Source: a virus. From it: a DNA stretch of 64,000 nt. Location of the stretch: the UHGV virus genome UHGV-0076293, one strand, 5' to 3'. Positions 5,699-54,782 of the stretch are shown here, piece by piece; the stretch's first letter is position 1, and the number at the start of each line of letters is the position of its first letter. The position numbers were made by a program, and so were the translations under genes. The notes below the pieces were generated by a model. It had not been told where the DNA came from. It saw only the letters and a program-made list of their open reading frames with translations, and ran no database searches.

Positions 5699-7017
5699 TG
5701 TCGTTTGGTCGGTTACAGAACATAGCAAACGTGCACATTGCACAAGCGGCGGGATTACCGGCCATCGAATACGTACCTATCATTACGGTACGTGGCACAG
5801 TTATCAGCGTATTTAAAACGTTGTCGATAATCCATGCCAGTAACTTCGCACAGGACTTAACGACTATCACCCATCTTACCGTGATGATACCGTTAAGCCA
5901 ACAGCGTGTGTTAACGTCTTCCGCAGACGGGGATTTGTCCGTGAAAATTCTAATGCGGACAATGAACAAGAAAACCGTTGCGAAACTCGACTATCGGGGT
6001 ATCGTCGTGAACAACCACGATCCCGATATGGAATCGCCCACGATGTTCTTAGGTGAGTCTGACCAGAAAGCGTTAGCGGTCGTCACCCTGGAGTTGATGG
6101 ACGAGTCGATGTGGTTCTTACGTTGCCGTCAAGTCGGTGGGATTTATCACGAGACAGATGGTCTTAGTGTTGTTCGTGCACTGCTGGCAGATACGTTACC
6201 TACTGGTGATGCGCCAGAAGGCCAGTTGGTGGGTGTGGAGTACGAGGAAGAGGAGCAACAGCCCTATCGGGATATTTTGATTCCTGACTCGGAAAGTTTC
6301 CTGTCCGTGTTCGATTACCTTCAGAATCGTTACGGGGTTTATAGTCAAGGTCTGGGGGTGTTCCTCTACAAACACCGTTGGTATATTTTCCAACCTTGGG
6401 ATTCTAAGAAGTTTTCATCAGCGAAGAATAAGCTGGTGATTATAAACCTGCCGAAAGAGAAAGCAGCGTATCTGAATAAGACCTGCCACATTGACGGTGA
6501 CGTGATTTACCTGATATGTGGTGGCGATGTCCACACCTTCGAAGATAAAGACTCCTTAGCACTAAACCAAGGTACCGGTTATCGTGTGGGGTCTATCCGT
6601 GCGTTGGATGGCCGTGCGTCTTCTTTCTCGTCAGGCGATGTTTCTGCTACAACGTCAGATTCGTTCGTGTCAGCGGCTGATCCGACGCAATATCCAGGTG
6701 GGGTGGTTAACGCACCAATAGACCCGAACCAACACTTCTCGGACACAGATAAACCGCAACGGTCTAAGTTGGCGGCGGCGAAAGGGACGCTAACAGCAAC
6801 AACCTGGAACGCATCAACGTACGGCTTACTCCGTCCGGGGATGGCAGTAAAATATATTTATGCGAATAACTATGGTGTATACACGCGTTACGGAACATTA
6901 GTTGCAGAAGTTTTCCAAGGTGCAATTGATGGTGGTTCAGCGGCTTCACCACGGTTTAATACCATTAGCCAGTTGACGTTGTGGCTGACTAATGAAAATT
7001 TTACATCCACAACGTAA
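5698..7017 (+). CDS. hypothetical protein (439 aa)
   Basis: TAATG stop/start overlap, AGGGGAGG RBS. Confidence 0.75.
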   Translation: MSFGRLQNIANVHIAQAAGLPAIEYVPIITVRGTVISVFKTLSIIHASNFAQDLTTITHLTVMIPLSQQRVLTSSADGDLSVKILMRTMNKKTVAKLDYRGIVVNNHDPDMESPTMFLGESDQKALAVVTLELMDESMWFLRCRQVGGIYHETDGLSVVRALLADTLPTGDAPEGQLVGVEYEEEEQQPYRDILIPDSESFLSVFDYLQNRYGVYSQGLGVFLYKHRWYIFQPWDSKKFSSAKNKLVIINLPKEKAAYLNKTCHIDGDVIYLICGGDVHTFEDKDSLALNQGTGYRVGSIRALDGRASSFSSGDVSATTSDSFVSAADPTQYPGGVVNAPIDPNQHFSDTDKPQRSKLAAAKGTLTATTWNASTYGLLRPGMAVKYIYANNYGVYTRYGTLVAEVFQGAIDGGSAASPRFNTISQLTLWLTNENFTSTT

Positions 7018-8010: not shown

Positions 8011-8065
8011 TATTTTCAGATATATATTACTTAGGTGAGAGAATTACGTAATACTCATTTATCGA
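8011..8065 (+). promoter_or_regulatory. phage promoter-like element with downstream 5'-UTR hairpin (copy 1)
   Basis: TTTTCAGATATATATTACTTAGGTGAGAG followed by an imperfect palindrome; about 25 nt upstream of an AGGAG RBS; one of five near-identical copies. Confidence 0.6.
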
Positions 8066-26800: not shown

Positions 26801-27379
26801 ATGTCGCAACCAACACAAGACGTGTCAGCAGCAATTCTTGACATTCTTATCCAAGCAGGGAACAGAAAGTTAAGTAAAGAGCAGTCCGAAGAACTGTCTA
26901 AGATTCTCAAAGACAACTTCGGTGACGAAGTCTCTGTAGACGTAACACGGTCGGGTACAAAGATTCTGTCGGAGTTACGTCCAACGCTTCTTGAGAACCT
27001 TGGAAAGATGGCGGAAAACTTTCAGCAGCAAGCCACAAATGCTGTAGAGAGTTTAGGTGACGAAGTAAGCAAAGAAACGATGTTGACACTGTGGCCGAAA
27101 CTTGCTGGCGCACAGAAGTTCATTATTGTTCTGCTTGCATTCGCCACTGTTGTCGTGACAGGCTTCTTAGCGTACGACACTCATCAGAACTTTCCAAAAG
27201 ACAGCATGGAAGTGTTGTTTGTATCCTTACTTCCGCTGTTCGGATTGGTAGTGTTCGCAACGTGGCCAATTAAAACATTGGCTTACAAGTCGTTGGAGAT
27301 TGCTACCAAAGTTGTCGAGAAGAAACTTGAGAAATCAGGTCAGGTCATCGCGAAGACAGAAACAAAGACAACGAAATAA
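26801..27379 (+). CDS. membrane protein, two predicted TM helices
   Basis: hydrophobic segments FIIVLLAFATVVVTGFLAY and VLFVSLLPLFGLVVFATWPI. Confidence 0.7.
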   Translation: MSQPTQDVSAAILDILIQAGNRKLSKEQSEELSKILKDNFGDEVSVDVTRSGTKILSELRPTLLENLGKMAENFQQQATNAVESLGDEVSKETMLTLWPKLAGAQKFIIVLLAFATVVVTGFLAYDTHQNFPKDSMEVLFVSLLPLFGLVVFATWPIKTLAYKSLEIATKVVEKKLEKSGQVIAKTETKTTK

Positions 27380-27383
27380 AACC

Positions 27384-27420
27384 AACCTCTACCTTCGGGT
27401 AGAGGTTTTCTTCTTTTTAT
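27384..27420 (+). terminator. intrinsic terminator
   Basis: ACCTCTACC-TTCG-GGTAGAGGT followed by a T-rich stretch. Confidence 0.75.
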
Positions 27421-27467
27421 TTTACAATTTTTGATCATACTGTGAGACTTCTAGCGAGGAGATTTAG

Positions 27468-28154
27468 ATGAAGGAATTGCAATTAAGAAAGCGTACTACT
27501 CTTATCCCCCTTAAGGAACTAAAACAGTGTCCCGTTTTCTACTCACCGAAAGATCACCTAGATTTATCTAAAGAGAAAAAGATTATTATTTCTGCCTTCC
27601 GAGAAGTAATCAATCTTCGTTATTTCGCGGCACCAATGGATTGTGCTATCGAACATGCTATGTTGGATGGAAGAACGTCGCTTACAGTTTACGATTTGTT
27701 AGAAGAAAAGAATATCGGTATTGAAACTGGTATACTGAGAGTAAACAAAAATGAGTTATTAGAAAGTCAAAAACAACTAATGACAGGTGTTCAATTACTC
27801 TTAGAGCAATATGGCTTCTATTCGGAAAAACCAACTTCTGCGGTATCTACGCAACCCATCATCTGTGACCATGGGTTTGAGGTAGAATGGAAAACAATTC
27901 GAGGGCAAGATTTTATTTTAATACATTGGTTCGTTCCCTATCTTTGGAAAGAGCGTACCACAGTTTATGCTTTACTTGAATTCGCTGTCTACTGGAGCAT
28001 TTATAAAAAAGAACGTGCTACTGCAATGAAAACGGTAATGACCACGCCGTTAAATCAACTTTTTACCTCTGGGTTAGAAACAGATTTTAACGAACTATGT
28101 ACAACTATTTTCAAGATGGAGTATGGCTATGCACCAGTTGGATATAACCGCTGA
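27468..28154 (+). CDS. hypothetical protein (228 aa)
   Basis: GAGGAG RBS. Confidence 0.7.
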   Translation: MKELQLRKRTTLIPLKELKQCPVFYSPKDHLDLSKEKKIIISAFREVINLRYFAAPMDCAIEHAMLDGRTSLTVYDLLEEKNIGIETGILRVNKNELLESQKQLMTGVQLLLEQYGFYSEKPTSAVSTQPIICDHGFEVEWKTIRGQDFILIHWFVPYLWKERTTVYALLEFAVYWSIYKKERATAMKTVMTTPLNQLFTSGLETDFNELCTTIFKMEYGYAPVGYNR

Positions 28155-28605
28155 TAAAATCTCCGCTAAATTTCCACAATTACGTGAATACATCAACGAC
28201 TTAAATTCAATTCGGGAAACACCGGTTAGAATTACGTTAGCAGTTGAAGATGATATTACTCACGGTATTGCGATCTGGGAGCCGGGTAATCTTATTTATC
28301 TGGTGGTGGCGGAAGGTTCTCGACGTTTCGGTGTTGGTTCGTTTTTATTGCAATACGTTCAATTGAATTCCGATCGTCAAATGGTGACGTGCCGTGTCCA
28401 CCCTTCGAACATTGACGGCCTGTGTTTCTTTTCGAAAAAGGGCTACCAGATTGACCGTTGGTATATCGCCAGCGACTCTCGTCGGTATTTTCGTATGACG
28501 AACGGTAACGTTGTTTCGTCATACGCCCCGCCGGAAGAAGGATATTTGGTGGATTTTATCGAAAACACGCCCATCTTTCTCTCTGTTGCGGATAAAATTT
28601 ATTAA
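28123..28605 (+). CDS. GNAT-fold acetyltransferase-like protein
   Basis: acetyl-CoA binding motif-like RRFGVGSFLL; start may be the in-frame ATG at 28129. Confidence 0.5.
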   Translation: MAMHQLDITADKISAKFPQLREYINDLNSIRETPVRITLAVEDDITHGIAIWEPGNLIYLVVAEGSRRFGVGSFLLQYVQLNSDRQMVTCRVHPSNIDGLCFFSKKGYQIDRWYIASDSRRYFRMTNGNVVSSYAPPEEGYLVDFIENTPIFLSVADKIY

Positions 28606-28621
28606 CCGTTGAGAGTCTAAA

Positions 28622-29098
28622 ATGATACGTGTCGAATATGAGACGCGGTGCTTAGAAGACAATCGAGCAAAAGCATTACGTTGTGTTGAAATCGTCCCCG
28701 CACACGAACTGGATATTCAAGCTGGTAAGGTTCGGGGCGTTCCGGTTAAGATCGTACAACACAGCCATTGTTCGCAATATAAAGAGAAAGCTGTCCCAGT
28801 AGTACGTTCCAGTAAACGAGAAGACTTTTCAGAACTCCGTAAGTGTTTTCAACGACACTACCGCCGGAGTAAATGGAAGGTGTTGGTATTAATGTTAGTC
28901 GACGATTTCATTAAAGACCTGGTTTGGGAAGAAGTGCTTAAAGAGCGTGGTTTTCAACCCAAACCGTTCTCGTATCACTGGGAACGTTTCAAAAAGAAAT
29001 ACCACGAGTCATTGCGTTGGTCTCCGAACACACGGAATATGATGCCACGTTTGGAATCAATGCCTTGGCTTCGTGTTTATCTCGATGAGGTAAACTGA
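28622..29098 (+). CDS. hypothetical protein (158 aa)
   Basis: ORF with ATGA-type coupling to the downstream gene. Confidence 0.65.
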   Translation: MIRVEYETRCLEDNRAKALRCVEIVPAHELDIQAGKVRGVPVKIVQHSHCSQYKEKAVPVVRSSKREDFSELRKCFQRHYRRSKWKVLVLMLVDDFIKDLVWEEVLKERGFQPKPFSYHWERFKKKYHESLRWSPNTRNMMPRLESMPWLRVYLDEVN

Positions 29099-29487
29099 TG
29101 AAACGTTTTATTACTCCCTTTCTAATGTTACTTTCGTTTTCCGTATTAGCGGATTTTAAACCTTACGATATCAGTCGTTACGAACCCGCTGTTCCTGGCG
29201 ATAAACCGGTTGTGTTTAAAGCAGGTGACCAACCCGTCACTGTGGTTCAAAACGATGAGTTTGCAGTGGTGAACTACGGCAAAACGGAGTTATGCCCTGC
29301 GGGTGGATTTTATCTGGTGAACATCAAACGTCGGACTTACCAGTTTGTTGATCCGGGTAGCTGCTCTGCAACGGTTAAGGTAACGTTAGAAACCGTACCT
29401 TACACGAATAAAAACATTAATATACAACGTTTAACCTTTTATGCGGGTGATGAAATCACAGCACGTTATCCGTTATACGGGTATTAG
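29098..29487 (+). CDS. secreted/periplasmic protein with signal peptide
   Basis: N-terminal MKRFITPFLMLLSFSVLA signal-peptide-like segment. Confidence 0.65.
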   Translation: MKRFITPFLMLLSFSVLADFKPYDISRYEPAVPGDKPVVFKAGDQPVTVVQNDEFAVVNYGKTELCPAGGFYLVNIKRRTYQFVDPGSCSATVKVTLETVPYTNKNINIQRLTFYAGDEITARYPLYGY

Positions 29488-29510
29488 TGATTAGCCCCCA
29501 CGGAGTTCGT

Positions 29511-30149
29511 ATGTCTTTTGTAATTGATTTCGACGTTGGCCACAGACAGAACTTACTTAATCTCGTTAGTTATTGTAACAGCGACAGTGTACGGAAAAAG
29601 CTTTCGGCTGAAAAGGTAGACGTTACGCTCGTCGGTGCCCCAACACCTGAAGGGCGCTATAAGGTAAAGTTAACGAACCGTAACGACATAAACGATGCGG
29701 TACTGATTACCTACACAAAGCTTCAACTGAACGACTTCCTTGAGATTCCCGCCAAGTATCTGGATTGGTTTGATTTCGAAAACGGTCAACCTAAGAACTA
29801 CGATACGTGGGCAGCTTCCGCTAAAGTCGCTGTAGAGAAAATGTGCCAAGACCGAGGTATGGTGTTATCGCGCGCTTGGGACACCGGTTCACAGTGTCAT
29901 GTTGAGTTTGACGAGTCTATCGAACGGTATGTGGTTGTTTACGAGTGCGACTCTTTTATTTATAGTGCGAGAAACCGATTCATCTTACCTCTACACTTAG
30001 GGCAGGTGATTAACGACACGACATTAGACGGTCTTAATTACAATAACGAACTGAACAAGAAACCATTGGCGGATTTGGACGGTGAGTTAGAAGTGTGGAT
30101 GGGTCAGGCGTTGGCTGAGACAGTAGTCTTAAGCGGCCTGGAAGTGTAA
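29511..30149 (+). CDS. hypothetical protein
   Basis: ATG with GGAG RBS; ORF track extends to a GTG at 29487. Confidence 0.65.
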   Translation: MSFVIDFDVGHRQNLLNLVSYCNSDSVRKKLSAEKVDVTLVGAPTPEGRYKVKLTNRNDINDAVLITYTKLQLNDFLEIPAKYLDWFDFENGQPKNYDTWAASAKVAVEKMCQDRGMVLSRAWDTGSQCHVEFDESIERYVVVYECDSFIYSARNRFILPLHLGQVINDTTLDGLNYNNELNKKPLADLDGELEVWMGQALAETVVLSGLEV

Positions 30150-30161
30150 TAGTAACGGTGT

Positions 30162-30205
30162 GTAGAGAGAGCTTTCGGGCTCTCTCTACTTTTCTTTTTT
30201 TTTTC
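30162..30205 (+). terminator. intrinsic terminator
   Basis: GTAGAGAGAGC-TTTCG-GGCTCTCTCTAC followed by T10. Confidence 0.85.
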
Positions 30206-30233
30206 ATTATCGACGGTCTTTATGGAGGTGACT

Positions 30234-30788
30234 ATGAAAGAATATAGAATTGCGATCATCGGGTCTCGAGAAACACCGGAAGACGTTATGCAGGAAATGT
30301 TAGAAACGTTACGGGAAGGGTTTCGAATCTTACGAAAGAAAGGCTACACGATTACCACCCGTTCTGGAGGGTGTTATAAAGGCCCAGACCAACTTCAGTT
30401 TATGATAGCACGTACCGAGGACGTTAAGAGCGTTTGTTATCTGCCGGATGAAAAGAAAATGTGGTTAGGGAAAATACACCCTAAGGTAGAGTTTCGTTAT
30501 ATCCCACAAGACGTTCAGTATCGTGCAGTTGTTGCTTCACTCCACCCAAACCCAGATAAGCTCTCACCGATTGCCTGGGCGTTACACGGTCGTAATCTGA
30601 ACATCATCGCAGGTGACCGCTTAGACGAACCGGTAGACGCAGTATATTACTTTAGCGACCACGACAAACACGGAAACGCAAAGGGTGGTACTGCGATGGG
30701 TGTAAAATACGCGAAGTCAATCGACGTTCCTTGTTACTATCATACCGCCGATCGAGATAAGTGGTTGGAAAGTCTTCGTTTATTATGA
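30234..30788 (+). CDS. Rossmann-fold SLOG-like (DprA/LOG-like) protein
   Basis: N-terminal YRIAIIGSRE followed by a Gly-rich segment resembles DprA/Smf and LOG-family nucleotide-binding folds; GGAGGT RBS. Confidence 0.4.
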   Translation: MKEYRIAIIGSRETPEDVMQEMLETLREGFRILRKKGYTITTRSGGCYKGPDQLQFMIARTEDVKSVCYLPDEKKMWLGKIHPKVEFRYIPQDVQYRAVVASLHPNPDKLSPIAWALHGRNLNIIAGDRLDEPVDAVYYFSDHDKHGNAKGGTAMGVKYAKSIDVPCYYHTADRDKWLESLRLL

Positions 30789-30911
30789 ACTTGACTTTAA
30801 CCGCGTAGTTGAGTTCAGCGATTCACCGTGTGATGGGAACAGAAGTTACTGCGTATCCGTTAGCAGGGTGAACTGGGTAAAAGTAAGATCAAAGCAAACG
30901 AGTAAATTATC

Positions 30912-32045
30912 ATGTCAACGTTAGATAGCGACTTAGAAGTGCTTTGTGACGATTACGACCGACTCGTAGCGTTAGAATCCATTGGAGTAAAAGACAATTA
31001 TCCGGCTATCGTTGCTATCCGTAAACGTTGGCTTTTGGATGATGTGGTTGTTGCGTCAGAGTCTGCGGCCATGATGCATCGTGCGCAGTTTTTGTCAGAC
31101 ACGGAACCTGATAAAGGGATTGGCAAAGCGGCGGCGCGACTCACCGGTCGTGCGGTTCGTGGCGTAAGTCGGGTAGCAGGACGTGCTGCCAGTGCAGGTG
31201 CAAAAGCATCAGCGAACTTTGCAGGTAAACATTCCAAACAACTTGCTTTACGTTTTGTGGATTTTGCTGAGGCTGCCGGTAAAGAAGTCATTAAGGAATT
31301 AAAAGAAGCGACGTCTAAAACGACGACCTTAGAACGCAAACTGCAAAAGTTAACCGCACGTCTAAGTTTAATCGGTGACAAAGACACTTTAAAACCGGTT
31401 GACTGCGACACGGGAAGTTGGACGACCAAAGTCTGTTTAGAAGACAAACCTAACGTAAAAGCATGTATTGAGTTCAGTAAGAACCTGAACGCAATGGATG
31501 CGATGGTCAACGAGTATACCGTTAAAACACGCACCATTATCGGTAAGAGCAAGAAAGTTACCGAGAGTGGTTTGGAGAAAGTAGGCCGGTCAACGAACTG
31601 GGCGATTAAACGTAGCGCAGGATTGTTCGGTATTATTGATCCGTTTAAAACGGTGAAAGCATATCCGTGGCCAGGTAACGTGGTGGTCGTTGAACACGAC
31701 AGCGGTAAGATTGAGTGGGCGATTGCCCGTGATGGTGATTTTGGCCACACAATCAAATCGCTGAACTTACACGAAATCGGTTCAGCACTCGATGCCGTTA
31801 GAAACATTATCCGTGCTTTACGTCAGCGTGGTACGAAACGACGTAGCGTTGGTTATACCGGTATTTACGATGAAATTCAGCGAATGAAAAAAGAACTGAA
31901 ATCGTTAGACGGTCGTGAGTTACGTGACGCTACCGTTCGGTATAAGAACGCACTGCGTTTAGAAGATGCGTTTACTACCTCGTTAGTGCGTGTTGCGGAA
32001 GGCTTACTGGAATGGTGCAGGTTGTCGCTGATTGAGGTTAAATAA
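30912..32045 (+). CDS. hypothetical protein (377 aa)
   Basis: long ORF with Ala/Arg-rich N-terminal region; the antisense 269-aa ORF inside it is rejected. Confidence 0.7.
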   Translation: MSTLDSDLEVLCDDYDRLVALESIGVKDNYPAIVAIRKRWLLDDVVVASESAAMMHRAQFLSDTEPDKGIGKAAARLTGRAVRGVSRVAGRAASAGAKASANFAGKHSKQLALRFVDFAEAAGKEVIKELKEATSKTTTLERKLQKLTARLSLIGDKDTLKPVDCDTGSWTTKVCLEDKPNVKACIEFSKNLNAMDAMVNEYTVKTRTIIGKSKKVTESGLEKVGRSTNWAIKRSAGLFGIIDPFKTVKAYPWPGNVVVVEHDSGKIEWAIARDGDFGHTIKSLNLHEIGSALDAVRNIIRALRQRGTKRRSVGYTGIYDEIQRMKKELKSLDGRELRDATVRYKNALRLEDAFTTSLVRVAEGLLEWCRLSLIEVK

Positions 32046-32512
32046 TGCGTATCACTATTATTCTCAAACCCGACAGTAAATACGGAAAGTTATACGGCGA
32101 CCAGGTACTCAAACTGCACAACATGCTGTTCGCAGAAGAGAAAGTGCGTATTAGTCAGTTAACCGGCCGTGACACGTTCAACCCCATCGAACGTTTAGAA
32201 GAGATTTGGCCTCAAGATTATCTCTGTGCGTGTGCGGTAGGTGACAACGAACAGCTTCTGGGATTTATGACGTTCTCATTGGGTTCTTGCTCAAAAGACA
32301 CGTTTGTTTACATCGGGAATTACTATGTGATTCCTGAAGCACGTTCTCAAGGGGTAGGGCGTGCGCTTATGGACAAAGTCCGTGAATACGGAAAGTCCAA
32401 AGGTTGTGGTTGGATGAGTCTGGATGTGTTAGACAACAACGTTAAAGCTATCTCCTTGTATGAGAAAATGGGATTCCGTACCGAATGCAGGGAAATGATA
32501 AAGGAAATCTAA
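32045..32512 (+). CDS. GNAT family N-acetyltransferase
   Basis: motif A-like RSQGVGRALMDKV and C-terminal LYEKMGF. Confidence 0.7.
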   Translation: MRITIILKPDSKYGKLYGDQVLKLHNMLFAEEKVRISQLTGRDTFNPIERLEEIWPQDYLCACAVGDNEQLLGFMTFSLGSCSKDTFVYIGNYYVIPEARSQGVGRALMDKVREYGKSKGCGWMSLDVLDNNVKAISLYEKMGFRTECREMIKEI

Positions 32513-32513
32513 A

Positions 32514-33146
32514 ATGGCTGCAAGATTCGTACCGTTTCACGACGGGTCTAGATATACTTTTGGTGTAGAGCGTTACGCTGTGGGTTTTCGTCCTGGTTGG
32601 AGAGTGGTACGAATCGATAAAACGTGTTGGTGTTTACCGACCAGCATTTTTGATTACTTTACACCTGAAGCTTTAACGCGGTTTGTTTCTCTGGGTTCAC
32701 CCACGCAACGTGCTGCGTGGGAAAAGAATATTCGTTGCCGTTATTTGGGTAAAACACGAAACGCGACGGTACGTGGTGTTTATCATGTAGGGAGTCGTTG
32801 GTTACACGTTGAGCCAACACATCCCCGTTGTGCCGTCACGCCCTTTAACGGTGAATATCATGGTCAGGTGTATACGGGGTTACATTTTGCGTTCCCGGAT
32901 AACCCTGACCTTAATTATTTTCTGGCTACCCCGAAAGACGTTACATTAGCCACGTTCTATAAATACCTTTTGTTCTATCCTGCCTACGTCGTTGCAGAAT
33001 ACGAACACAAAGCATTTCCTCTGCCTTACGGTAGAGACAGGAGATTAGCAGGATGTTCTATCGAGAACTTCAGCAATACACCGACGCTCTCCGAAAAGCG
33101 ACCATTGATGCTCACAACAACCTCAGAGATGTCGTTAGCGTTATAG
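32514..33146 (+). CDS. hypothetical protein (210 aa)
   Basis: ORF directly after the GNAT gene. Confidence 0.65.
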   Translation: MAARFVPFHDGSRYTFGVERYAVGFRPGWRVVRIDKTCWCLPTSIFDYFTPEALTRFVSLGSPTQRAAWEKNIRCRYLGKTRNATVRGVYHVGSRWLHVEPTHPRCAVTPFNGEYHGQVYTGLHFAFPDNPDLNYFLATPKDVTLATFYKYLLFYPAYVVAEYEHKAFPLPYGRDRRLAGCSIENFSNTPTLSEKRPLMLTTTSEMSLAL

Positions 33147-33424
33147 AACAGTGTTCGGATGTATTGTATGCGGAAACGATTGAAACGCCAACCCACGACG
33201 GTGTGAAATCGCTCCAGCTACACGTTTGTAGTAAACACGGCAGTCTGTCGTTAAACTTCCGTGTAGGTTTAGATTATTACATGGTTCGTAAGAGCTATTT
33301 AAGTTGTGACGGTGACCTCTATCCGGTTGTCTGGAACAACGATTATTCTAAGTTTGTTTATCCACTTGAAGAACACCGACGCACGGTTTATGAATTTGTG
33401 AAAGCTGTTCTCGAGGGGTTCTAA
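33053..33424 (+). CDS. hypothetical protein (123 aa), overlaps upstream gene by 94 nt
   Basis: alternate-frame ORF; unusually long overlap, so one of the two boundaries may be wrong. Confidence 0.4.
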   Translation: MFYRELQQYTDALRKATIDAHNNLRDVVSVIEQCSDVLYAETIETPTHDGVKSLQLHVCSKHGSLSLNFRVGLDYYMVRKSYLSCDGDLYPVVWNNDYSKFVYPLEEHRRTVYEFVKAVLEGF

Positions 33425-33434
33425 AGAGGGTATT

Positions 33435-34043
33435 GTGATGTCAGAGATGATTCTCGACTCATTACTGCTGATTACGGTGGCGTATATCAACAAAACCGGT
33501 AAGCTACCAAAGCGTGGGGTGACGATTGAACGGGAGGGGTTTAAGCACCGCTACCCGTTAACGAAAGTTCTCGATTTGGCAGCGCGGTTAGCGAAGATGC
33601 GTAGACCGACGTCAGACGCAGCACCGAAGTACGTATTAGTGGTACTTCAACGTGCGATTTCTGAAGTTCGTCGTGCGCGTCGTCGTGCCTCGTTTCGCTT
33701 TTATCCAAACTCTACGCAACAGGTTGTGGGGGTCTATAACGAAATGGTTGTTGATTTACGTACCGAACACTGTAACGTTACGGGACTTGCGTATAACCGC
33801 CTCAAACGCATTCTGGACAACTCAGACGCGTTTACCACACCGCAAGAAGGCCAAGCGGCTTTAGCGCTTCTACGTGGCGCTGAGCTCGTTATTGTGGACA
33901 CCGCAGTACAGGCCGCAAGAATGCAGCACTATCTTGCTAAGCAAGGGTTAGTTATACTGTGTGTACCGTCTGCACAGGCTGCTAATCTTACCGCACCGGA
34001 AACGTCAGAAGTGTGGAGTGGTCCGATTGTTGACCATCAATAA
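33435..34043 (+). CDS. hypothetical protein (202 aa)
   Basis: ORF followed by a terminator. Confidence 0.65.
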   Translation: MMSEMILDSLLLITVAYINKTGKLPKRGVTIEREGFKHRYPLTKVLDLAARLAKMRRPTSDAAPKYVLVVLQRAISEVRRARRRASFRFYPNSTQQVVGVYNEMVVDLRTEHCNVTGLAYNRLKRILDNSDAFTTPQEGQAALALLRGAELVIVDTAVQAARMQHYLAKQGLVILCVPSAQAANLTAPETSEVWSGPIVDHQ

Positions 34044-34050
34044 AACCTTA

Positions 34051-34088
34051 CCCCTACCGTTAGGTAGGGGCGGGTTTCTTTTTTATCC
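34051..34088 (+). terminator. intrinsic terminator (repeat-family hairpin)
   Basis: CCTTACCCCTACC-GTTA-GGTAGGGG followed by a T-rich stretch; near-identical hairpin recurs at 34813. Confidence 0.75.
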
Positions 34089-34181
34089 TAAAATTTATTA
34101 CAACCAATAGCTATTATGTGAACGCCGGTATGGAATAAAGAAGTATCGGTTTAAATTTTTGTGCGTAAAGGTAAAACAATA

Positions 34182-34805
34182 ATGCTTAAGACAGTGTCTA
34201 TTGATGGCCCTGACTTTTCTGGGAAATCGACGTTGTGCAAAATAGTAAAAGGTATGCTGGAATCTGCGGGGTTAAAGGTCTGCATCCGTAATCACCCTAC
34301 GACGGAGACCGAAGCGGGTATCCGCGCACGCAGTTTAGTCGTTCAGTCCGCAGCAAAAGCAAAAATTGCTGAAGCGATGTGCGACGATTTCCTCCACACG
34401 CTAGACCATGTTGTTGACGATTACGATGTTGTTATTTTCGACAGGTTCTGTCCCTCTACAATCGTTTACCAGGGCGTCGACGGTAAAGACGAAGTTTTCC
34501 GACGCAAGCTAACGCGTCATTTCCACGCGCCAGATTTATACGTTTGGACAGATGTGGATTACGACGGCGCAGTAGCACGCTTTAAGAAACGAGTAGAAGA
34601 ACAAGGTAAGAATTGGGACGATGAAGTTCTTACCGTTAAGTATTTAAAAGACAACCAAAGCTGGGAAGCGTTACGTGACCACTACCGTTTCGCCCACCAC
34701 ATTCTCACTGAAGGCGGTTGTCTACATCGTTTATTGCCTGTGAAACAAGACGACGACTACCGTTTAAAAGCGGCGGAAATCGTTGCTTGTATTTTAGAGA
34801 ATTAA
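34182..34805 (+). CDS. tmk: thymidylate kinase-like nucleoside monophosphate kinase
   Basis: P-loop IDGPDFSGKST and DRF...STIVYQG align with the E. coli Tmk motifs (IEGLEGAGKTT, DRH...STQAYQG); ATG at 34182 with AAAGG RBS (track starts at a GTG at 34161). Confidence 0.65.
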   Translation: MLKTVSIDGPDFSGKSTLCKIVKGMLESAGLKVCIRNHPTTETEAGIRARSLVVQSAAKAKIAEAMCDDFLHTLDHVVDDYDVVIFDRFCPSTIVYQGVDGKDEVFRRKLTRHFHAPDLYVWTDVDYDGAVARFKKRVEEQGKNWDDEVLTVKYLKDNQSWEALRDHYRFAHHILTEGGCLHRLLPVKQDDDYRLKAAEIVACILEN

Positions 34806-34812
34806 TCCCTTA

Positions 34813-34848
34813 CCCCCTACCTTCGGGTAGGGGTTATTTAATTTTTTC
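34813..34848 (+). terminator. intrinsic terminator (repeat-family hairpin)
   Basis: CCCTTACCCCCTACC-TTCG-GGTAGGGG followed by a T-rich stretch. Confidence 0.75.
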
Positions 34849-34890
34849 TCAGATATATATTACCTTAGTGAGATTACACAGTAATCACTT
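34843..34890 (+). promoter_or_regulatory. phage promoter-like element with downstream 5'-UTR hairpin (copy 2)
   Basis: TTTTTTCTCAGATATATATTACCTTAGTGAGA followed by an inverted repeat (TTAC...GTAATCAC). Confidence 0.6.
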
Positions 34891-34923
34891 TACGACTTGT
34901 TCTACAGATTAGGATTAATTATC

Positions 34924-35283
34924 ATGGCTTACAATCACAACTCTATTGTTTTAGCAAAACGTAAATTCGGTCTTCATCTTTCTTACGTGATTCGTCATTT
35001 GACAGCGAAAGACATTACGCAGCGTGAACTTGCCCAGCTTGCGAAAGTTTCACAACCGGTTATCTCATCTATTAAGAACGATCGCAGCGAACGCCTGAGT
35101 CTCCCAATAATGATGAAGGTTGCTGATGCGATTCGTCTGAAATATCAGATTACGTTTAATTCTGTTAAAGGGCGTTGCTCAGTAACGGTTCACGTAGAGT
35201 CTGCGTTGGACTACGTTGCAAATACGTCCCTTAAACGTACAGCGAAGAATATTCGTTTTGTTACTAACAGCGCAACACACTAA
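34924..35283 (+). CDS. XRE-family helix-turn-helix DNA-binding protein
   Basis: ITQRELAQLAKVSQPVISSIKN is a canonical HTH; first ATG (track starts at a TTG at 34897); directly downstream of promoter motif copy 2. Confidence 0.65.
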   Translation: MAYNHNSIVLAKRKFGLHLSYVIRHLTAKDITQRELAQLAKVSQPVISSIKNDRSERLSLPIMMKVADAIRLKYQITFNSVKGRCSVTVHVESALDYVANTSLKRTAKNIRFVTNSATH

Positions 35284-35304
35284 TCAACCTAAAGGAGTAT
35301 TATC

Positions 35305-35988
35305 ATGGCACCGAAAACTAAGAAAACTGAAGTTAAAGAAACTGTAGAAAAACCGGTTGATGCTAAGGAAGCAGAAGTTAAGCAGACTGAGCCTAGCAAG
35401 AAGCTTGCGCTTATGCCGCCTGCCACAGAAATACACGGGGATAAAATCTTAAGTTACACTCCGCGTGCGAGTTTAACGATCGATATTTACCATTACCCGG
35501 TATTCGACTTGTACACGCTTGTCTGTCGACTCGACGATGAGGTACTGGCAGTCGTTCCTGGTATCCACAAAGAAAAACTGCTTACGGGTTCAGTCATTAG
35601 CGAGATTTTCCTGCGCTTGATGTTTAAATCAGACGATAAGAGGATCAGCCAGATTGCTAGTAAATTGGCTGACTTCTTTGTTGAGGCTTCAACGTGGTTA
35701 GGCTTTCACCCAACGGCTTATTTCATTTTCGACACCAAAATGTTGTATGCTGAAATGGGCGATAGTGTTAAGTATCCTATCTTACTTAATGAAGAAGTCG
35801 TTCCGTTTTCCCTTTCCAGTCCTAACAAACATCTTCGCTTTCATCCGGCGTTAGAAAGCCTGATCGAATACCAACGGTTGGAAAAATATTACGCTTATCA
35901 TCGCATGTTCTTTGAGCTTCTGCGTGATAAATTAAGAGGCAAAGTTCCAGATTCTAGTGTATCGTTCACTAGTTCTAAGCTTTGGTAG
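35305..35988 (+). CDS. hypothetical protein (227 aa)
   Basis: AAGGAG RBS; Lys/Glu-rich N-terminus. Confidence 0.7.
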   Translation: MAPKTKKTEVKETVEKPVDAKEAEVKQTEPSKKLALMPPATEIHGDKILSYTPRASLTIDIYHYPVFDLYTLVCRLDDEVLAVVPGIHKEKLLTGSVISEIFLRLMFKSDDKRISQIASKLADFFVEASTWLGFHPTAYFIFDTKMLYAEMGDSVKYPILLNEEVVPFSLSSPNKHLRFHPALESLIEYQRLEKYYAYHRMFFELLRDKLRGKVPDSSVSFTSSKLW

Positions 35989-35997
35989 TTTGTAACA

Positions 35998-36028
35998 AAC
36001 AGGGAGCTTCGGCTCCCTTTTTCTTTTT
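35998..36028 (+). terminator. intrinsic terminator
   Basis: AGGGAGC-TTCG-GCTCCCT followed by a T-rich stretch. Confidence 0.8.
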
Positions 36029-36074
36029 ACAACTTTTTCTTTTGTTGTGAGGAAAGCCGATAAGGAGTATTAAA

Positions 36075-37061
36075 ATGGTATATCGTAAAACGATAGAAAG
36101 AACCTCTTCTGATTTAACAGTAGGACGCTTAGCCCGTAGAGATATTCGCAATCCTCAACTTCAGGCATGTTTAATGGGTCCTAACGGTGCGGTGATTCGT
36201 GAAGCACTGTGTAATACCGAGCTGAATACGTTCTCTTTACAAAAAGGAAAAACAATCCAAGGGTTTATCATCACAAAACACATTTACGGTGATCCAACGT
36301 TACACTGCTTGTATATGCACGAAATTGTACCAGGCTGTTTGAACAAACTGAGTCTTCTATTGGTACTTGACTATACGGGTTTTACGTACCTTAACCGAAT
36401 TGCCAGAGGCGTGGAAGAAATTGCTGAGCTTAACGATTTAGGGTTTAGACATACCCACACAGCATATCGTTTAGGTACACGTACGCTATCGGATGTCACT
36501 TTACCGACGAACGTGAAGAACGTCTCCGGCGACTTCTATAAAGACTTAACCGGAGCACAACGTGAGCAGCTCATGACATTGTTTGGCACTAGTGTCGTTG
36601 AAAATATCAATGCTGACCCTGTAACGCGTTCTCGACAAATAATGCCGCAAGTTGAAACATTGGTGGAGTTAGTGCGGCACGTCAATCACTACACTTACGT
36701 TTGGATGGGCGGTAATGACGTTGTGGGTGTGGTGCAAGTTAAATCACGTAATCTTAGTGAGTGCGAACTAAAAGCCATTGCGGTAAGTGAATCACACCGG
36801 GGCCGTGGGATTGGGCGTGCGTTGCTGTATCGTGCTTTACAGATTGCATCGACAACAGCGGCACCATTAGAAATAGGGTGTTACAATAACAATTCAGCAT
36901 TTAGACACCTGGCTGTAGATTTGTTTAAATTCCGTCCCTACGAGTACGAATTTGTTTTAGTGCGCGACGACGATGTCGTCAGTTGGGAGCGTCGGAAAAA
37001 CCGCGTCGCGTTAGTGTTAGGCGACGAAATGTCAACGTTACAAGGCGGAATTAATGCATAA
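36075..37061 (+). CDS. two-domain protein with C-terminal GNAT acetyltransferase fold
   Basis: C-terminal AVSESHRGRGIGRALLYRAL (GNAT motif A); about 200-aa N-terminal domain of unknown function; overlaps the Dam start. Confidence 0.6.
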   Translation: MVYRKTIERTSSDLTVGRLARRDIRNPQLQACLMGPNGAVIREALCNTELNTFSLQKGKTIQGFIITKHIYGDPTLHCLYMHEIVPGCLNKLSLLLVLDYTGFTYLNRIARGVEEIAELNDLGFRHTHTAYRLGTRTLSDVTLPTNVKNVSGDFYKDLTGAQREQLMTLFGTSVVENINADPVTRSRQIMPQVETLVELVRHVNHYTYVWMGGNDVVGVVQVKSRNLSECELKAIAVSESHRGRGIGRALLYRALQIASTTAAPLEIGCYNNNSAFRHLAVDLFKFRPYEYEFVLVRDDDVVSWERRKNRVALVLGDEMSTLQGGINA

Positions 37062-37869
37062 ACCAATTATAAAGTGGATGGGTGGCAAATCGCGGATCAT
37101 CGACACCTTACTACAAGTCTTACCTGAACGTACAACATTCGTTGAACCGTTTGTTGGTGCAGGGTCGGTGTTTTTGAACACACGTTATAAACGTTACATT
37201 CTTGCTGACTCTAACCCTGACTTAATACAGTTGCTGAACGTGGCGAAAGACCAACCTGAAGAACTTATCTTAAAGTCGAAACCGCTATTCGAAGACGGTA
37301 ACGATTGTATTAAGTATATGGAGAGACGAGAACTGTTTAATCGCGAAACGGATATGGCTCCGTTAGACCGTGCTGCAATGTTTCTGTACTTAATGCGTCA
37401 CGGTTTTAACGGGATGTGTCGTTACAACGGCAGCGGGGGGTTTAACGTTCCGTTTGGTCGCTATCCTAACGGTGTGTATTACCCGTTAGAAGAGATTCGT
37501 GGTTGGGCTAAACGTTGTCAAGAACCGGAATACTTAGAAATTGTTTGTGAAGATTTCCGAACAGTTTTAGAGCGTACACCGGAAGACAGCGTGATTTACG
37601 CAGACCCACCTTATATACCGCTCTCAGAGACCGCTAAACACGCCCAATACCATCGGAAGGAGTTTTCCCAGGCTGACCATCGGGAACTCGCCAGAGCGCT
37701 GTTTAAGCAGGTTGAGAAGGGGAATAGCGTTGTGTTGTCCAATGCAGATACGTTACTAACGCGTGAGATTTATTACGGGTTCGAATGGCGTTCTGTGGAA
37801 GTAGGGCGGTATATGGGTGCATCGGGCGCTGCTCGTAAAACGGTAACGGAATTGTTAGGAGTGCTCTAA
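37054..37869 (+). CDS. dam: Dam-type DNA N6-adenine methyltransferase
   Basis: KWMGGK, VEPFVGAGSVFLNT, YILADSN and catalytic DPPY motifs match E. coli/T4 Dam almost residue for residue. Confidence 0.9.
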   Translation: MHKPIIKWMGGKSRIIDTLLQVLPERTTFVEPFVGAGSVFLNTRYKRYILADSNPDLIQLLNVAKDQPEELILKSKPLFEDGNDCIKYMERRELFNRETDMAPLDRAAMFLYLMRHGFNGMCRYNGSGGFNVPFGRYPNGVYYPLEEIRGWAKRCQEPEYLEIVCEDFRTVLERTPEDSVIYADPPYIPLSETAKHAQYHRKEFSQADHRELARALFKQVEKGNSVVLSNADTLLTREIYYGFEWRSVEVGRYMGASGAARKTVTELLGVL

Positions 37870-38642
37870 TGCGTATAGTGGATATCCACGATTATCGTAA
37901 TGACCATTTAGCGATTGGTGTAGAAGGTAAAATGGTTTCGTTAACCCGTGTACGTAAAGGGTTAATGGAAAAGGAAATCATTCGGGAATCTGAAGACCCT
38001 ACCTTTATCATCCTTTCGAATACTAACCAGTTACAGGGCATCTTTTCAGGGCGTGCAGACGGTAAGATTTTCTATATGTCCGCGATCGTTGTGTTTGCGA
38101 AGAAGAACATCAACTTCGCCCAACTCAAACGTTTGTTAAACGTGAAGATGTTCGATGTCACGTACCCTGCTAACGACCTAAAACGTCGTAATCAATTAAT
38201 GACGTTTTTAGGTATGCAACCAACGTCTATCGATTATGACCTTACGATTACTGAAAAGCCGGAAGTGCGCACTGACTTACCTGACGTAGACGATGTTGAA
38301 TCCTTAACGTTAGAAGAGACGTTTACGATTCCTAAGGTTGTTAATGTCAACCTGGACACGCACTGTTTAGGGTTGTTAGCCGTAGGTGCAGCAGAAGGGT
38401 TGTGTTGTCGTAAAGACGGTAAGGTTGAAGGTATCTTAGTCTATTCGAAAATCAACGAAAAGACATTTGCCACCGAAGGCTTTTTCTATAACGATTGCAC
38501 TTACGGAAACGCTCTACTAACCACGTATTTCCGTATTGCTTATCTGAAAGGCGCAACTGTACGCCTCACGTTTCCATACACAGCTCCACCGTCTATGGGT
38601 GGAGTTGAGGTAGAAGCATTAACCGGTCACTTTATCTTTTAA
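37869..38642 (+). CDS. hypothetical protein (257 aa), third gene of the GNAT-Dam operon
   Basis: TAATG overlap with dam. Confidence 0.65.
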   Translation: MRIVDIHDYRNDHLAIGVEGKMVSLTRVRKGLMEKEIIRESEDPTFIILSNTNQLQGIFSGRADGKIFYMSAIVVFAKKNINFAQLKRLLNVKMFDVTYPANDLKRRNQLMTFLGMQPTSIDYDLTITEKPEVRTDLPDVDDVESLTLEETFTIPKVVNVNLDTHCLGLLAVGAAEGLCCRKDGKVEGILVYSKINEKTFATEGFFYNDCTYGNALLTTYFRIAYLKGATVRLTFPYTAPPSMGGVEVEALTGHFIF

Positions 38643-38651
38643 GGATGATGA

Positions 38652-38879
38652 ATGGAAATCAAACGTATTGTAACCAAAAACAAACAGATTGTTTACGTCG
38701 CAGGTGATAACGAATTCTCGGCGGTAATTAACAGCGAAAATGCGCTCATTATCGGTTATCCGGGTAAAGTTATTACGCGCAGTCACCAACGTGCGATTGA
38801 CAAACTTATCGCGAAAGCGAAAGCGCGCGACGGTGTTGGTTCAGTACAAACCCACACAGGGTTAACGCTGACCCTCTAG
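38652..38879 (+). CDS. hypothetical small protein (75 aa)
   Basis: AGGATGATGAATGG RBS region. Confidence 0.6.
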   Translation: MEIKRIVTKNKQIVYVAGDNEFSAVINSENALIIGYPGKVITRSHQRAIDKLIAKAKARDGVGSVQTHTGLTLTL

Positions 38880-38918
38880 TCAGCAGGTAATATGACCTCT
38901 TAACTGGAGACTTTAATA

Positions 38919-39425
38919 ATGAGTGAGACTCTGGATTTTAATCAGCTCGAACAACACGATTTCGATCTCGGTGTTCGTGATATCGATGCTGATCATGAAA
39001 CACGTTGTAAAGAGCTGTTTAACCGTTACGGTCAGCTCATCACCGGTGCCTCTGATGACACCGAATTCAGTTTAGATGAGTTTGAAAAAGTTTTGTCGTG
39101 TTTTATCACCGATTGCCTGGCGAAGAAAGCGTTACTGGTAGAACTGAACTTAGACTCCGTCGAACCTACCGATGCCCACGCGGTGTTGAAAGAATCCATT
39201 ATCCCAACTGATGAGATTATGGACACGGTAGCAGGTATTCGTGGTACGTTTGAAACCGCTGTAGATGAATACACGGAACAGCTTCGTGAGTCAGGACTGA
39301 CGTTGTGTGCGCCAGCAGGCGAGCAATTACCGTCCGACGCAGAAACTGAAGAAGCGCGTAGCCGCTTAGCACGTTATGTTATCACGTCTATCTTGGTAGA
39401 TGATCGCGAAGAGAATCTGCTGTAA
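38919..39425 (+). CDS. strongly acidic small protein
   Basis: 168 aa with very high Asp/Glu content and few basic residues. Confidence 0.65.
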   Translation: MSETLDFNQLEQHDFDLGVRDIDADHETRCKELFNRYGQLITGASDDTEFSLDEFEKVLSCFITDCLAKKALLVELNLDSVEPTDAHAVLKESIIPTDEIMDTVAGIRGTFETAVDEYTEQLRESGLTLCAPAGEQLPSDAETEEARSRLARYVITSILVDDREENLL

Positions 39426-39428
39426 GCT

Positions 39429-39466
39429 GCCCCCTCTCTCCAGACGGAGAGAGGGTGTATTTTTTA
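39429..39466 (+). terminator. intrinsic terminator (repeat-family hairpin)
   Basis: CCCCCTCTCTCC-AGAC-GGAGAGAGGG followed by a T-rich stretch; near-identical hairpin at 40214. Confidence 0.8.
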
Positions 39467-54736: not shown

Positions 54737-54782
54737 TCAGATATATATTACCTAGAGGAGAGTGAAATTTACATTCACTCCA
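54731..54782 (+). promoter_or_regulatory. phage promoter-like element with downstream 5'-UTR hairpin (copy 4)
   Basis: TTTTTTCTCAGATATATATTACCTAGAGGAGAGTGAA followed by an inverted repeat ending TTCACTCC. Confidence 0.6.

Follow-up and report, generated by a model that had tools for sequence, protein, structure and literature searches.

The published precedent for the modification of a host protein by a phage GNAT acetyltransferase is Rac (gp28) of phiKMV-like Pseudomonas phages, which acetylates the alpha subunit of the host RNA polymerase and which comparative genomics papers have proposed as a model for the GNATs of jumbo phages (PMC7824862, PMC13282480). Jumbo-phage proteins have also been assayed directly. 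In E. coli BL21 ΔspeG, YP_007237670 of phiEaH2 and YP_009292176 of Caitlin make N-acetylspermidine, the SPN3US ortholog makes none in the same assay, a homolog from Goslar is also active on spermidine, and the activity of the phage enzymes is below that of E. coli SpeG (PMC9992855). The fold has been reused non-enzymatically as well, in the C-terminal domain of chimallin (PMC9365700). We compared these systems with three genes in a 64,000-nucleotide viral stretch (UHGV-0076293, hereafter the window), which derives from a SPN3US/Erskinevirus-like jumbo phage. The resemblance of their products to Rac is one of functional analogy only.

Organisation and conservation of the three genes

The window probably holds three genuine acetyl-CoA-dependent members of the GNAT superfamily, mutually only distantly related and placed in three separate transcription units bounded by terminators. 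They are GNAT1 (28129..28605, 158 aa, a minimal GNAT), GNAT2 (32045..32512, 155 aa, a canonical GNAT), and GNAT3 (36075..37061, 328 aa, a two-domain protein), all on the + strand. A preliminary description had reported three acetyltransferase-like proteins within 9 kb, and the span from the first to the last (28123-37061) is indeed 8.9 kb; the two open reading frames that it called GNAT-like, at 28123-28605 (160 aa) and 32045-32512 (155 aa), are present on the + strand with the motifs it quoted. All three proteins combine the GNAT fold with an intact Q/R-x-x-G-x-G/A pyrophosphate loop, and the motif positions vary little or not at all in the alignment of each family.

The division into separate units follows from strong hairpin/T-run terminators at 27384, 30162, 34051, 34814, 36001, and 39432. 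A terminator-like hairpin with a T-run (27384..27407, +) marks the end of the unit that precedes the GNAT1 unit (27468-30149), which is itself bounded by terminator-like hairpins. Another (30162..30189, +) lies between this unit and that of GNAT2 (30222-34043), which ends at a hairpin at 34051..34070 (+). A strong hairpin/T-run terminator starts at 34814, and a terminator-like hairpin (36001..36018, +) stands just upstream of the third unit (36075-39425), which starts with GNAT3, Dam, and ORF257 and runs to the strong hairpin/T-run terminator at 39432-39455.

The orthologs of GNAT1, GNAT2, and GNAT3 in SPN3US are gp88, gp95, and gp104, and the arrangement of the three genes, both order and position, is shared by SPN3US, Caitlin, Huxley, Wellington, and pEa_SNUABM_29; Asesino and phiEaH2 likewise carry GNAT1 and GNAT2. 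Deposited phage genomes carry GNAT1 in 62 cases, GNAT2 in 58, and GNAT3 in 48. They are conserved syntenic genes of nucleus-forming jumbo phages of the SPN3US-like kind (Seoulvirus, Erskinevirus, Machinavirus). They are ordinary new members of known families, and GenBank/RefSeq already annotates all three as acetyltransferases. The SPN3US proteomics papers and their searchable supplements make no mention of gp88, gp95, or gp104.

GNAT1, a minimal GNAT restricted to phages

The start of GNAT1 is most likely the ATG at 28129 and not that at 28123, because a GGAG (28118-28121) lies 7 nt upstream of the former and because every ortholog, like a relative of 95-98% identity, begins at the same Met. 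The protein carries the acetyl-CoA loop motif R67-R-F-G-V-G72 (within RRFGVGSFLL, aa 67-76), and its Pfam match alone is weak (Acetyltransf_7, E 9e-4, 20 bits against a cut-off of 27). This sub-threshold score, taken alone, is all that speaks for chance motifs in one or both of the weaker candidates, GNAT1 and GNAT2, and for proteins without an acetyltransferase fold. We give this idea practically no credence, and it is refuted by several results. GNAT1 has an ortholog of known crystal structure, PDB 7DQG ("Salmonella phage acetyltransferase"; 57-58% identity, phmmer E 5.5e-60). Its AF2 model (pLDDT 74) has a GNAT-like order of strands and helices and gives 266 PDB matches at E<=1e-3, with GNAT-type acetyltransferases making up all 50 of those listed. 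Precomputed Pfam GNAT matches exist for 12 of its 15 full-length homologs, and GNAT2 is far above its Pfam threshold (Acetyltransf_1, E 8.8e-19, 68.3 bits against 20.7). GNAT1 also matches phrog_7861 ("acetyltransferase") at 1.6e-69. Profile searches, to which the preliminary description had left the two candidates, thus back both folds, and the profile evidence for the three proteins goes far past what chance would give.

The closest described relative of GNAT1 is SPN3US gp88/7DQG (phrog_7861), a full-length ortholog (Foldseek E 7e-21, TM 0.76) that shares its length, its motif A, its conserved C-terminal tail, and its position in a unit that follows the block of portal and virion-protein genes. 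The two differ by ~42% sequence divergence and in the gene directly upstream of GNAT1, which is another, variable cassette. We found no publication, ligand information, or published function for 7DQG, which therefore provides the fold of GNAT1 and not its mechanism. A search of 1.84 billion representatives with the GNAT1-family profile returned 104 matches, 15 of them at E<=1e-10, and the best match of the divergent members was always phrog_7861; the family is tiny and confined to phages.

After 7DQG, the best structural neighbours of the GNAT1 model are Ard1/Naa10-type N-terminal acetyltransferases, PA4794, RimI, and YjaB (Foldseek E 4e-8 to 5e-6, TM 0.5-0.67), single-domain GNATs of a compact size near that of GNAT1 but only 11-21% identical to it; for a minimal GNAT such as this one, structural neighbours are a weak guide to substrate. 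Tentatively, GNAT1 might be a minimal GNAT confined to this lineage whose substrate is an amino group on a protein, at an N-terminus or on a lysine. Catalysis would then depend not on the customary alpha4 tyrosine but on other residues, and the invariant C-terminal tail (EE 138-139, PIFLS 150-154) would bind a partner or substrate. Two observations count against a protein acetyltransferase: the alpha4 Tyr general acid is replaced by the invariant Phe102/Phe103, and the rimI model gives 16 bits against a cut-off of 86. GNAT1 further departs from these structural neighbours in having one helix in the usual place of alpha1-alpha2 and in its extra conserved tail.

The missing tyrosine, with F102 and F103 invariant, would also fit a catalytically weak or inactive protein, a regulator or scaffold binding CoA or acetyl-CoA and using the conserved tail for protein-protein contacts, which we consider rather unlikely. 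The tail is invariant yet poorly modelled (pLDDT below 50), and chimallin exemplifies the non-enzymatic reuse of the fold in these phages (PMC9365700). Against inactivity, purifying selection acts strongly on the pyrophosphate-binding loop R67-R68-x-G70-V-G/A and on many core residues among members ~50% identical, and catalysis could come from the invariant polar residues E42, D43, D44, Y78, C90, and Y122. Moreover, absence of the alpha4 Tyr is common among active GNATs.

GNAT2 and the possible acetylation of spermidine

GNAT2 contains RSQGVGRALMDKV (aa 100-112) and LYEKMGF (aa 138-144), with the motif residues R100-S-Q-G-V-G105, N131/N132, and Y139. It starts within the stop codon of the preceding gene (TAATG), which encodes a phiKZ-type internal head protein (30912..32045, +; ortholog of SPN3US gp94). 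The two genes would be translationally coupled, and their adjacency is kept in all relatives examined; YP_007237670 and YP_009292176 are themselves the products of genes directly downstream of that for the internal head protein.

The target of GNAT2, given as unknown in the preliminary description, can now be discussed from its orthologs, two of which acetylate spermidine while that of SPN3US is negative (PMC9992855). On balance, we favour GNAT2 as a polyamine (spermidine) N-acetyltransferase like those of phiEaH2 and Caitlin, an activity that we infer from these orthologs. Co-translated with the internal head protein, it would turn the free spermidine of the infected cell into inactive N-acetylspermidine. 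The two active enzymes (phrog_3810) are full-length positional orthologs of 154-155 aa, 49% (phiEaH2) and 45% (Caitlin) identical to GNAT2, and have in common with it R-x-x-G-V-G, N131/N132, Y139, and the VLDNN segment; they differ in having His where GNAT2 has Gly91. The SPN3US ortholog (47%, Tyr91, Gly130) is as similar to GNAT2 as the active enzymes are, yet is inactive (PMC9992855). Because the active enzymes lie on either side of the SPN3US clade in a rough NJ tree, spermidine activity looks ancestral. The Goslar homolog is more distant from GNAT2 (hhalign, 97%).

The closest solved sequences are human SSAT2/thialysine acetyltransferase (2BEI, 5e-10), nourseothricin acetyltransferase (5C82, 1e-9), the polyamine acetyltransferase Dpa of Acinetobacter (8A9O, 9e-7), and AAC(6')-Iy (1S3Z, 1e-6). 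All four act on polycationic, polyamine-like amines, and they share with GNAT2 the beta4-alpha3-beta5-alpha4 core, including VLD-N and the alpha4 Tyr. The match spans only the C-terminal half (~70-95 residues), and the acidic beta4 pair (E/D-D, within L-E/D-D) corresponds to G-N in GNAT2, the acidic residue being Gly91. GNAT2 also scores below every NCBIfam equivalog cut-off (e.g., SpmdActasePaiA, 25 bits against 250), and it belongs to none of the specific families of these four enzymes.

The low activity relative to SpeG means that spermidine may be a side substrate. The substrate of GNAT2 could then be some other amine (thialysine, a polyamine other than spermidine, or a compound resembling the aminoglycosides or streptothricins), or it could be a lysine in a protein, perhaps the internal head protein, and spermidine acetylation would be a side reaction of the Erwinia-phage orthologs; we see this as possible, if doubtful. 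It would accord with the inactivity of the SPN3US ortholog on spermidine, with a position 91 that is Gly in the window, His in the active Erwinia-phage enzymes, Tyr in SPN3US, and Glu/Asp in the characterised polyamine and aminoglycoside enzymes, with PDB/NCBIfam neighbours that include nourseothricin, streptothricin, and AAC(6') enzymes and RimI, and with the tight conserved coupling to the internal head protein gene. Spermidine as the substrate is favoured by the three homologs, 19-49% identical to the window protein, that are active on it, by the active Goslar enzyme, whose lack of both His91 and Asp130 indicates that neither residue is required, and by the window protein keeping every invariant column of the family alignment.

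GNAT3, a two-domain protein linked to Dam

The Dam-linked GNAT protein of the preliminary description is borne out by GNAT3, which passes the Pfam threshold (Acetyltransf_1, E 8.3e-11, 42.6 bits) and overlaps by 8 nt the gene of Dam, a D12-class N6-adenine DNA methyltransferase (37054..37869, +). The Dam gene in turn shares one base with the start of ORF257 (37869..38642, +; 257 aa; phrog_9941), of the family of SPN3US gp106/gp107. The C-terminal half of GNAT3 (aa ~195-306) is a GNAT with the acetyl-CoA motif R242-G-R-G-I-G247 (within HRGRGIGRALL, aa 241-251); the N-terminal half has GNAT-like secondary structure without this motif, the order of elements being GNAT-like in both halves of a model with a pLDDT of 48 from a four-sequence alignment. 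The top Foldseek matches of the model are tandem GNATs, namely, the clavulanate-pathway protein 2WPW, Legionella VipF, a glucosamine N-acetyltransferase, MAB_4324, and MshD, with TM-scores of only ~0.3 for this low-confidence model.

GNAT3 resembles 2WPW, VipF, MshD, and MAB_4324 in length class (~300-330 aa) and in having the acetyl-CoA motif in one half only. It differs from them in the lack of any sequence-level match except a weak one to MshD (20.6 bits against a cut-off of 163), and a conserved association with Dam is a feature of its phage family only. By its architecture, GNAT3 has an even chance of being a tandem-GNAT enzyme in which the N-terminal half has degenerated and the C-terminal half is active; the enzyme would be expressed together with Dam and a degenerate paralog of its own. 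The latter is probably ORF257, which lacks the acetyl-CoA-binding motif and aligns with GNAT3 at 81% over 150 columns.

Relationships and origin of the three genes

As the preliminary description had it, the three proteins are not close paralogs: pairwise BLASTP gives E-values of 0.08-0.24, and the 104 matches of the GNAT1 profile, GNAT clusters drawn from the whole protein universe, include no ortholog of GNAT2 or GNAT3. Profile comparisons reach further. The hhalign values of 93% for GNAT1-GNAT2 (E 3e-7) and 91% for GNAT3-GNAT2 (E 9e-7), the GNAT2 family phrog_3810 as next-best family of both GNAT1 and GNAT3, matches of divergent GNAT1 relatives to phrog_3810 down to 1e-9, and the similarity of ORF257 to GNAT3 would all suit an origin of the three GNATs and ORF257 by ancient duplications inside the jumbo-phage lineage, not by independent captures. 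We judge this improbable: any two GNATs show similarity of this level, GNAT1-GNAT3 reaches only 3.9% in hhalign, the GNAT1 profile gives GNAT2 only 13 bits within the window, and GNAT2 is nearer to the generic phrog_1249 (3e-15) than to the GNAT1 and GNAT3 families.

Given the synteny across relatives, the suggestion that the genes were independently acquired cannot refer to a recent accretion in this phage. From the shared order and positions and the 48-62 deposited genomes, any separate acquisitions must have taken place before Seoulvirus, Machinavirus, Wellingtonvirus, and Erskinevirus diverged from one another.

A trio of GNAT-fold genes in a compact gene run

The + strand of the window carries a tightly packed run of genes between 26 and 39 kb, and three of them encode proteins of the acetyltransferase (GNAT) fold. 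The preliminary description had flagged GNAT-like motifs in two: GNAT1 (28123-28605, +) and GNAT2 (32045-32512, +). Both exist there as open reading frames, of 160 and 155 aa, and contain the motifs quoted. The third, "Dam-linked" gene, GNAT3 (36075-37061, +; 328 aa), overlaps by 8 nt the gene Dam (37054-37869, +), which encodes a D12-class N6-adenine DNA methyltransferase (Pfam MethyltransfD12, 1.3e-57). From GNAT1 to GNAT3 the extent is 8.9 kb. The true start of GNAT1 is probably the ATG at 28129, not 28123, because it has a GGAG 7 nt upstream and because the same Met starts its orthologs and the protein of a 95-98% identical relative.

We assessed the fold of each protein with profiles, structures, and the motif that binds the pyrophosphate of the cofactor. 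This motif (Q/R-x-x-G-x-G/A, beta4-alpha3) is kept in all three, as R67-R-F-G-V-G72 in GNAT1, R100-S-Q-G-V-G105 in GNAT2, and R242-G-R-G-I-G247 in GNAT3. At least one of its glycines is invariant in each of the three family alignments; its arginine is invariant in the families of GNAT1 and GNAT2 and varies across the divergent GNAT3 family. GNAT2 is predicted unambiguously to be a GNAT-fold protein: it matches Pfam Acetyltransf_1 with an E-value of 8.8e-19 (68.3 bits, for a cut-off of 20.7) and phrog_3810 at 9e-43, the orthologs being 45-51% identical over 100% of their length and having the same neighbours. GNAT3 matches the same Pfam family over residues 199-275 (42.6 bits, cut-off 20.7). 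Its structural model, of low confidence (pLDDT 48), shows a GNAT-like arrangement of secondary structure in each half; a Foldseek search with this low-confidence model ranks tandem-GNAT proteins first.

The Pfam match of GNAT1 itself is weak (Acetyltransf_7, 20 bits, under the cut-off of 27), and precomputed Pfam GNAT matches are present in 12 of 15 full-length homologues. Its fold is nevertheless settled, because four other lines of evidence agree. One is its match to phrog_7861, "acetyltransferase", at 1.6e-69. Along its full length, GNAT1 shares 57-58% identity with PDB entry 7DQG, a "Salmonella phage acetyltransferase" (phmmer 5.5e-60 over residues 6-157; 2.5e-84 with the family profile). 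The AF2 model, built with 15 homologues (pLDDT 74), has its strands and helices in the order of the GNAT fold. Finally, Foldseek places 7DQG first (E 7e-21, TM 0.76) among 266 PDB matches at E<=1e-3, and the best 50 of these 266 are all GNATs. The top ranks in a library of viral structures are G5DEI1 of Salmonella phage SPN3US and J7KJA4 of Erwinia phage phiEaH2. GNAT1 is thus a member of the family of 7DQG and SPN3US gp88 (phrog_7861). Our literature search for 7DQG or "Salmonella phage acetyltransferase" found no publication. With Pfam, PHROG, PDB, and fold evidence, together with the motif in all three proteins, the two candidates that had seemed weaker both hold as GNATs, by Pfam for GNAT2 and by 7DQG, phrog_7861, and Foldseek for GNAT1.

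The profiles of four families found no further copies among all ORFs of at least 60 aa in the window, a search in which such narrow profiles would miss unrelated GNATs. AMR59843.1, a RimI-like jumbo-phage GNAT that Iyer et al. cite and that is numbered within the accession series of phage SEGD1 proteins, is absent from this region and so is none of the three. Among PADLOC models, GNAT1, GNAT2, GNAT3, and ORF257, a 257-aa ORF that follows Dam, have no match, and only Dam does, to methyltransferase models.

The trio is an old trait of SPN3US-like phages

Megablast of positions 27000-34000 against 50,697 deposited phage records gave no match, so we identified the lineage by searches at the protein level. 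The proteins place the window in a SPN3US-like jumbo phage. From the minus-strand gene of a 905-aa virion protein to Dam, the gene order matches that of SPN3US nearly gene for gene, with gp88 corresponding to GNAT1, gp94 to the internal head protein, gp95 to GNAT2, gp104 to GNAT3, and gp105 to Dam. The same order is found in Caitlin, Huxley, Wellington, and pEa_SNUABM_29. In Erskinevirus (Asesino and phiEaH2), GNAT1 and GNAT2 are present and GNAT3 is missing. Full-length orthologs were found by tblastn in 62 phage records for GNAT1 (43-68% identity to the window), 58 for GNAT2 (40-50%), and 48 for GNAT3 (21-29%), nearly all with an annotation as (putative) acetyltransferase. GNAT3, with the low identity of its orthologs relative to those of GNAT1, is the fastest evolving and most dispensable of the three.

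Copies that are 96-98% identical occur in contigs of 220-225 kb labelled Salmonella enterica or E. coli and in many sequencing runs, and the clusters that hold proteins at this identity have as many as 562 members. It appears that enterobacterial sequencing data commonly contain a SPN3US-like jumbo phage not yet described. The shared order, the many orthologs, and the near-identical copies show that the acetyltransferase trio is an old and stable trait of the SPN3US-like clade, already present in databases. The three genes therefore add new sequences to families that are known and annotated, and are not a discovery. Their importance is modest: three unrelated acetyltransferases are retained as a constant set in SPN3US-like jumbo phages.

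The preliminary description held that the three are not close paralogs and look independently acquired. The first part is correct. Pairwise BLASTP among them is non-significant (E 0.08-0.24), and hhalign probabilities (93% for GNAT1-GNAT2, 91% for GNAT3-GNAT2, 3.9% for GNAT1-GNAT3) correspond to ordinary superfamily-level homology. A search of 1.84 billion representatives with the GNAT1-family profile returned 104 matches, 15 of them at E<=1e-10, and no ortholog of GNAT2 or GNAT3 is among the 104. The GNAT1 family is small and restricted to this phage lineage. The hhalign values, and the weak matches of the three PHROG families to one another, are suggestive of a specific paralogy by a very old duplication; the search of all representatives, however, showed no special closeness between the three. 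Independent acquisition is unsupported. What the conserved order across genera rules out is a recent accretion, because either process, capture or duplication, predates the divergence of Seoulvirus, Machinavirus, Wellingtonvirus, and Erskinevirus.

GNAT2 and polyamine acetylation

The substrates had been described as unknown, which is outdated for GNAT2: biochemistry on its orthologs has been published, with inconsistent results. Li et al. (PNAS 2023; PMC9992855) tested phage proteins that were candidates for spermidine N-acetyltransferases by expressing them in E. coli BL21 ΔspeG. The proteins YP_007237670 of phiEaH2 and YP_009292176 of Caitlin made N-acetylspermidine, but YP_009153389 of SPN3US made none in this strain; the enzyme of phage Goslar was likewise active on spermidine (PMC9992855). 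According to the RefSeq annotation, the first three are precisely the positional orthologs of GNAT2, to which they are 49% (phiEaH2), 45% (Caitlin), and 47% (SPN3US) identical. In a rough neighbour-joining tree the active enzymes of phiEaH2 and Caitlin bracket the SPN3US clade, and for this reason spermidine activity looks ancestral in the family.

Among solved structures, the nearest in sequence to GNAT2 are polyamine-type enzymes (SSAT2, nourseothricin acetyltransferase, Dpa, and AAC(6')-Iy). Membership of the SpeG, PaiA, or SSAT families was rejected with the NCBIfam equivalogs: GNAT2 scores 25.4 bits against SpmdActasePaiA, far below the cut-off of 250, and no SpeG model is among the matches listed. 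It may work like these enzymes without being a member. Two positions differ between the active and inactive orthologs. At position 91 the active Erwinia-phage enzymes have His, where SPN3US has Tyr and the window clade Gly (G91); at position 130 these active enzymes and the window share Asp (D130), and the SPN3US clade has Gly. Thr and Ala occupy the two positions in the distantly related Goslar enzyme, which is active; this rules out His91 and Asp130 as predictors, so the sequence features of GNAT2 do not predict activity. On the balance of these comparisons we lean slightly towards the window GNAT2 acetylating spermidine or a related polyamine. The authors of the biochemical study suggested that CRISPR and restriction could lose accuracy if spermidine is depleted early (PMC9992855).

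GNAT2 directly follows the gene of a phiKZ-type internal head protein. Its ATG shares one base with the stop codon of that gene (TAATG), with a GAGG 7 nt upstream, and the two genes stand side by side in all the relatives that we examined. The translational coupling may serve packaging: spermidine would be acetylated as the head proteins are made, leaving a smaller pool of polyamine counter-ions, and condensation of the 240-kb genome would take place round its protein inner body, not by means of polyamines. We consider this packaging reading, taken together with GNAT1 and GNAT3 as lineage-specific acetyltransferases directed at proteins or DNA and lacking a characterised counterpart, to be very improbable. 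Packaging of the GNATs themselves in the virion is unsupported, as the main texts and some supplements of the SPN3US virion-proteome papers searched mention the neighbour gp94 only, and not gp88, gp95, or gp104.

GNAT1 as a candidate protein acetyltransferase

GNAT1 has a solved structure in its family, and GNAT2 alone among the three has a biochemical assignment, inconsistent between orthologs. GNAT1 has one helix in place of the usual alpha1-alpha2, and its AcCoA loop is intact. Residues E42-D43-D44, Y78, C90, and Y122 are invariant in the family, as is the C-terminal tail, which is poorly modelled. After 7DQG, the structural neighbours of the model are protein acetyltransferases (Ard1/Naa10, PA4794, RimI, and YjaB), a likeness of predicted structure only. 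We rejected GNAT1 as a member of the RimI or N-alpha-acetyltransferase group, since it scores 16 bits against rimI TIGR01575 (cut-off 86.4) and lacks the catalytic Tyr of alpha4; this general-acid position is a Phe, aligned with the invariant Phe103. A protein-directed acetyltransferase is our best guess, and a tentative one. That GNAT1 is weakly active, or has a non-catalytic role in binding CoA, is a serious alternative, if a somewhat less likely one; the Phe in alpha4 speaks for such a role and the conserved AcCoA loop against it.

Since genetic tools exist for SPN3US and a crystal structure for gp88, experiments could identify what GNAT1 and GNAT3 acetylate and on what GNAT2 truly acts.

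GNAT3, Dam, and ORF257

ORF257 (37869-38642, +) belongs to phrog_9941, the family of SPN3US gp106/gp107. An hhalign comparison with the GNAT3 family aligns 150 columns, which take in the linker and the N-terminal domain (81%, E 1.3e-5), and ORF257 is devoid of the AcCoA motif. It is probably a degenerate paralog of GNAT3, and this alignment and missing motif would leave Dam flanked by a putative tandem GNAT and its apparent degenerate paralog. Asesino and phiEaH2, which lack GNAT3, keep Dam and the downstream ORF257 family.

Transcription units and repeated elements

Strong hairpin/T-run terminators are predicted at 27384, 30162, 34051, 34814, 36001, and 39432, and 25 sites of this kind were found vs 13 expected. 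They split GNAT1, GNAT2, and GNAT3 into separate predicted transcription units. Besides GNAT1, Unit A (27468-30149) holds four genes without known function; one of them, a 129-aa ORF (29098-29487, +; phrog_5248), has a signal-peptide-like start, MKRFITPFLMLLSFSVLA. Unit B (30222-34043) comprises a SLOG/DprA-like gene, the genes of the internal head protein and of GNAT2, and three others without known function. Unit E (36075-39425) contains GNAT3, Dam, ORF257, and one further gene. The SLOG/DprA-like gene, first in its unit (30222-30788, +), matches phrog_768 at 1.8e-42 and, weakly, Pfam YAcAr; the ligands of SLOG domains are often nucleotide-derived.

The gene directly upstream of GNAT1 (27468-28154, +), whose 3' end overlaps it by 26 nt, has no blastn match in the otherwise 95-98% identical relative, which has a different 217-aa gene in its place (5407-6060 of that relative). 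It looks like a variable cassette.

A stem CTACC-loop-GGTAG with C/G-run flanks is nearly alike in the terminators at 27384-27407, 34051-34070, and 34814-34833 (+), as if one terminator module were reused between units. An AT-rich early-promoter-like 16-mer was sought before the GNAT units and is absent there. This 16-mer, CAGATATATATTACCT, which resembles the extended AT-rich early promoters of the virion RNAP in phiKZ-like phages, is found exactly at 34850-34865, 54738-54753, and 59125-59140 (+), and with one mismatch at 8017-8032 (+). It has four matches with at most one mismatch and six with at most three, vs 0.35 expected by chance, and the copy at 34850 lies between a terminator hairpin and an HTH gene.
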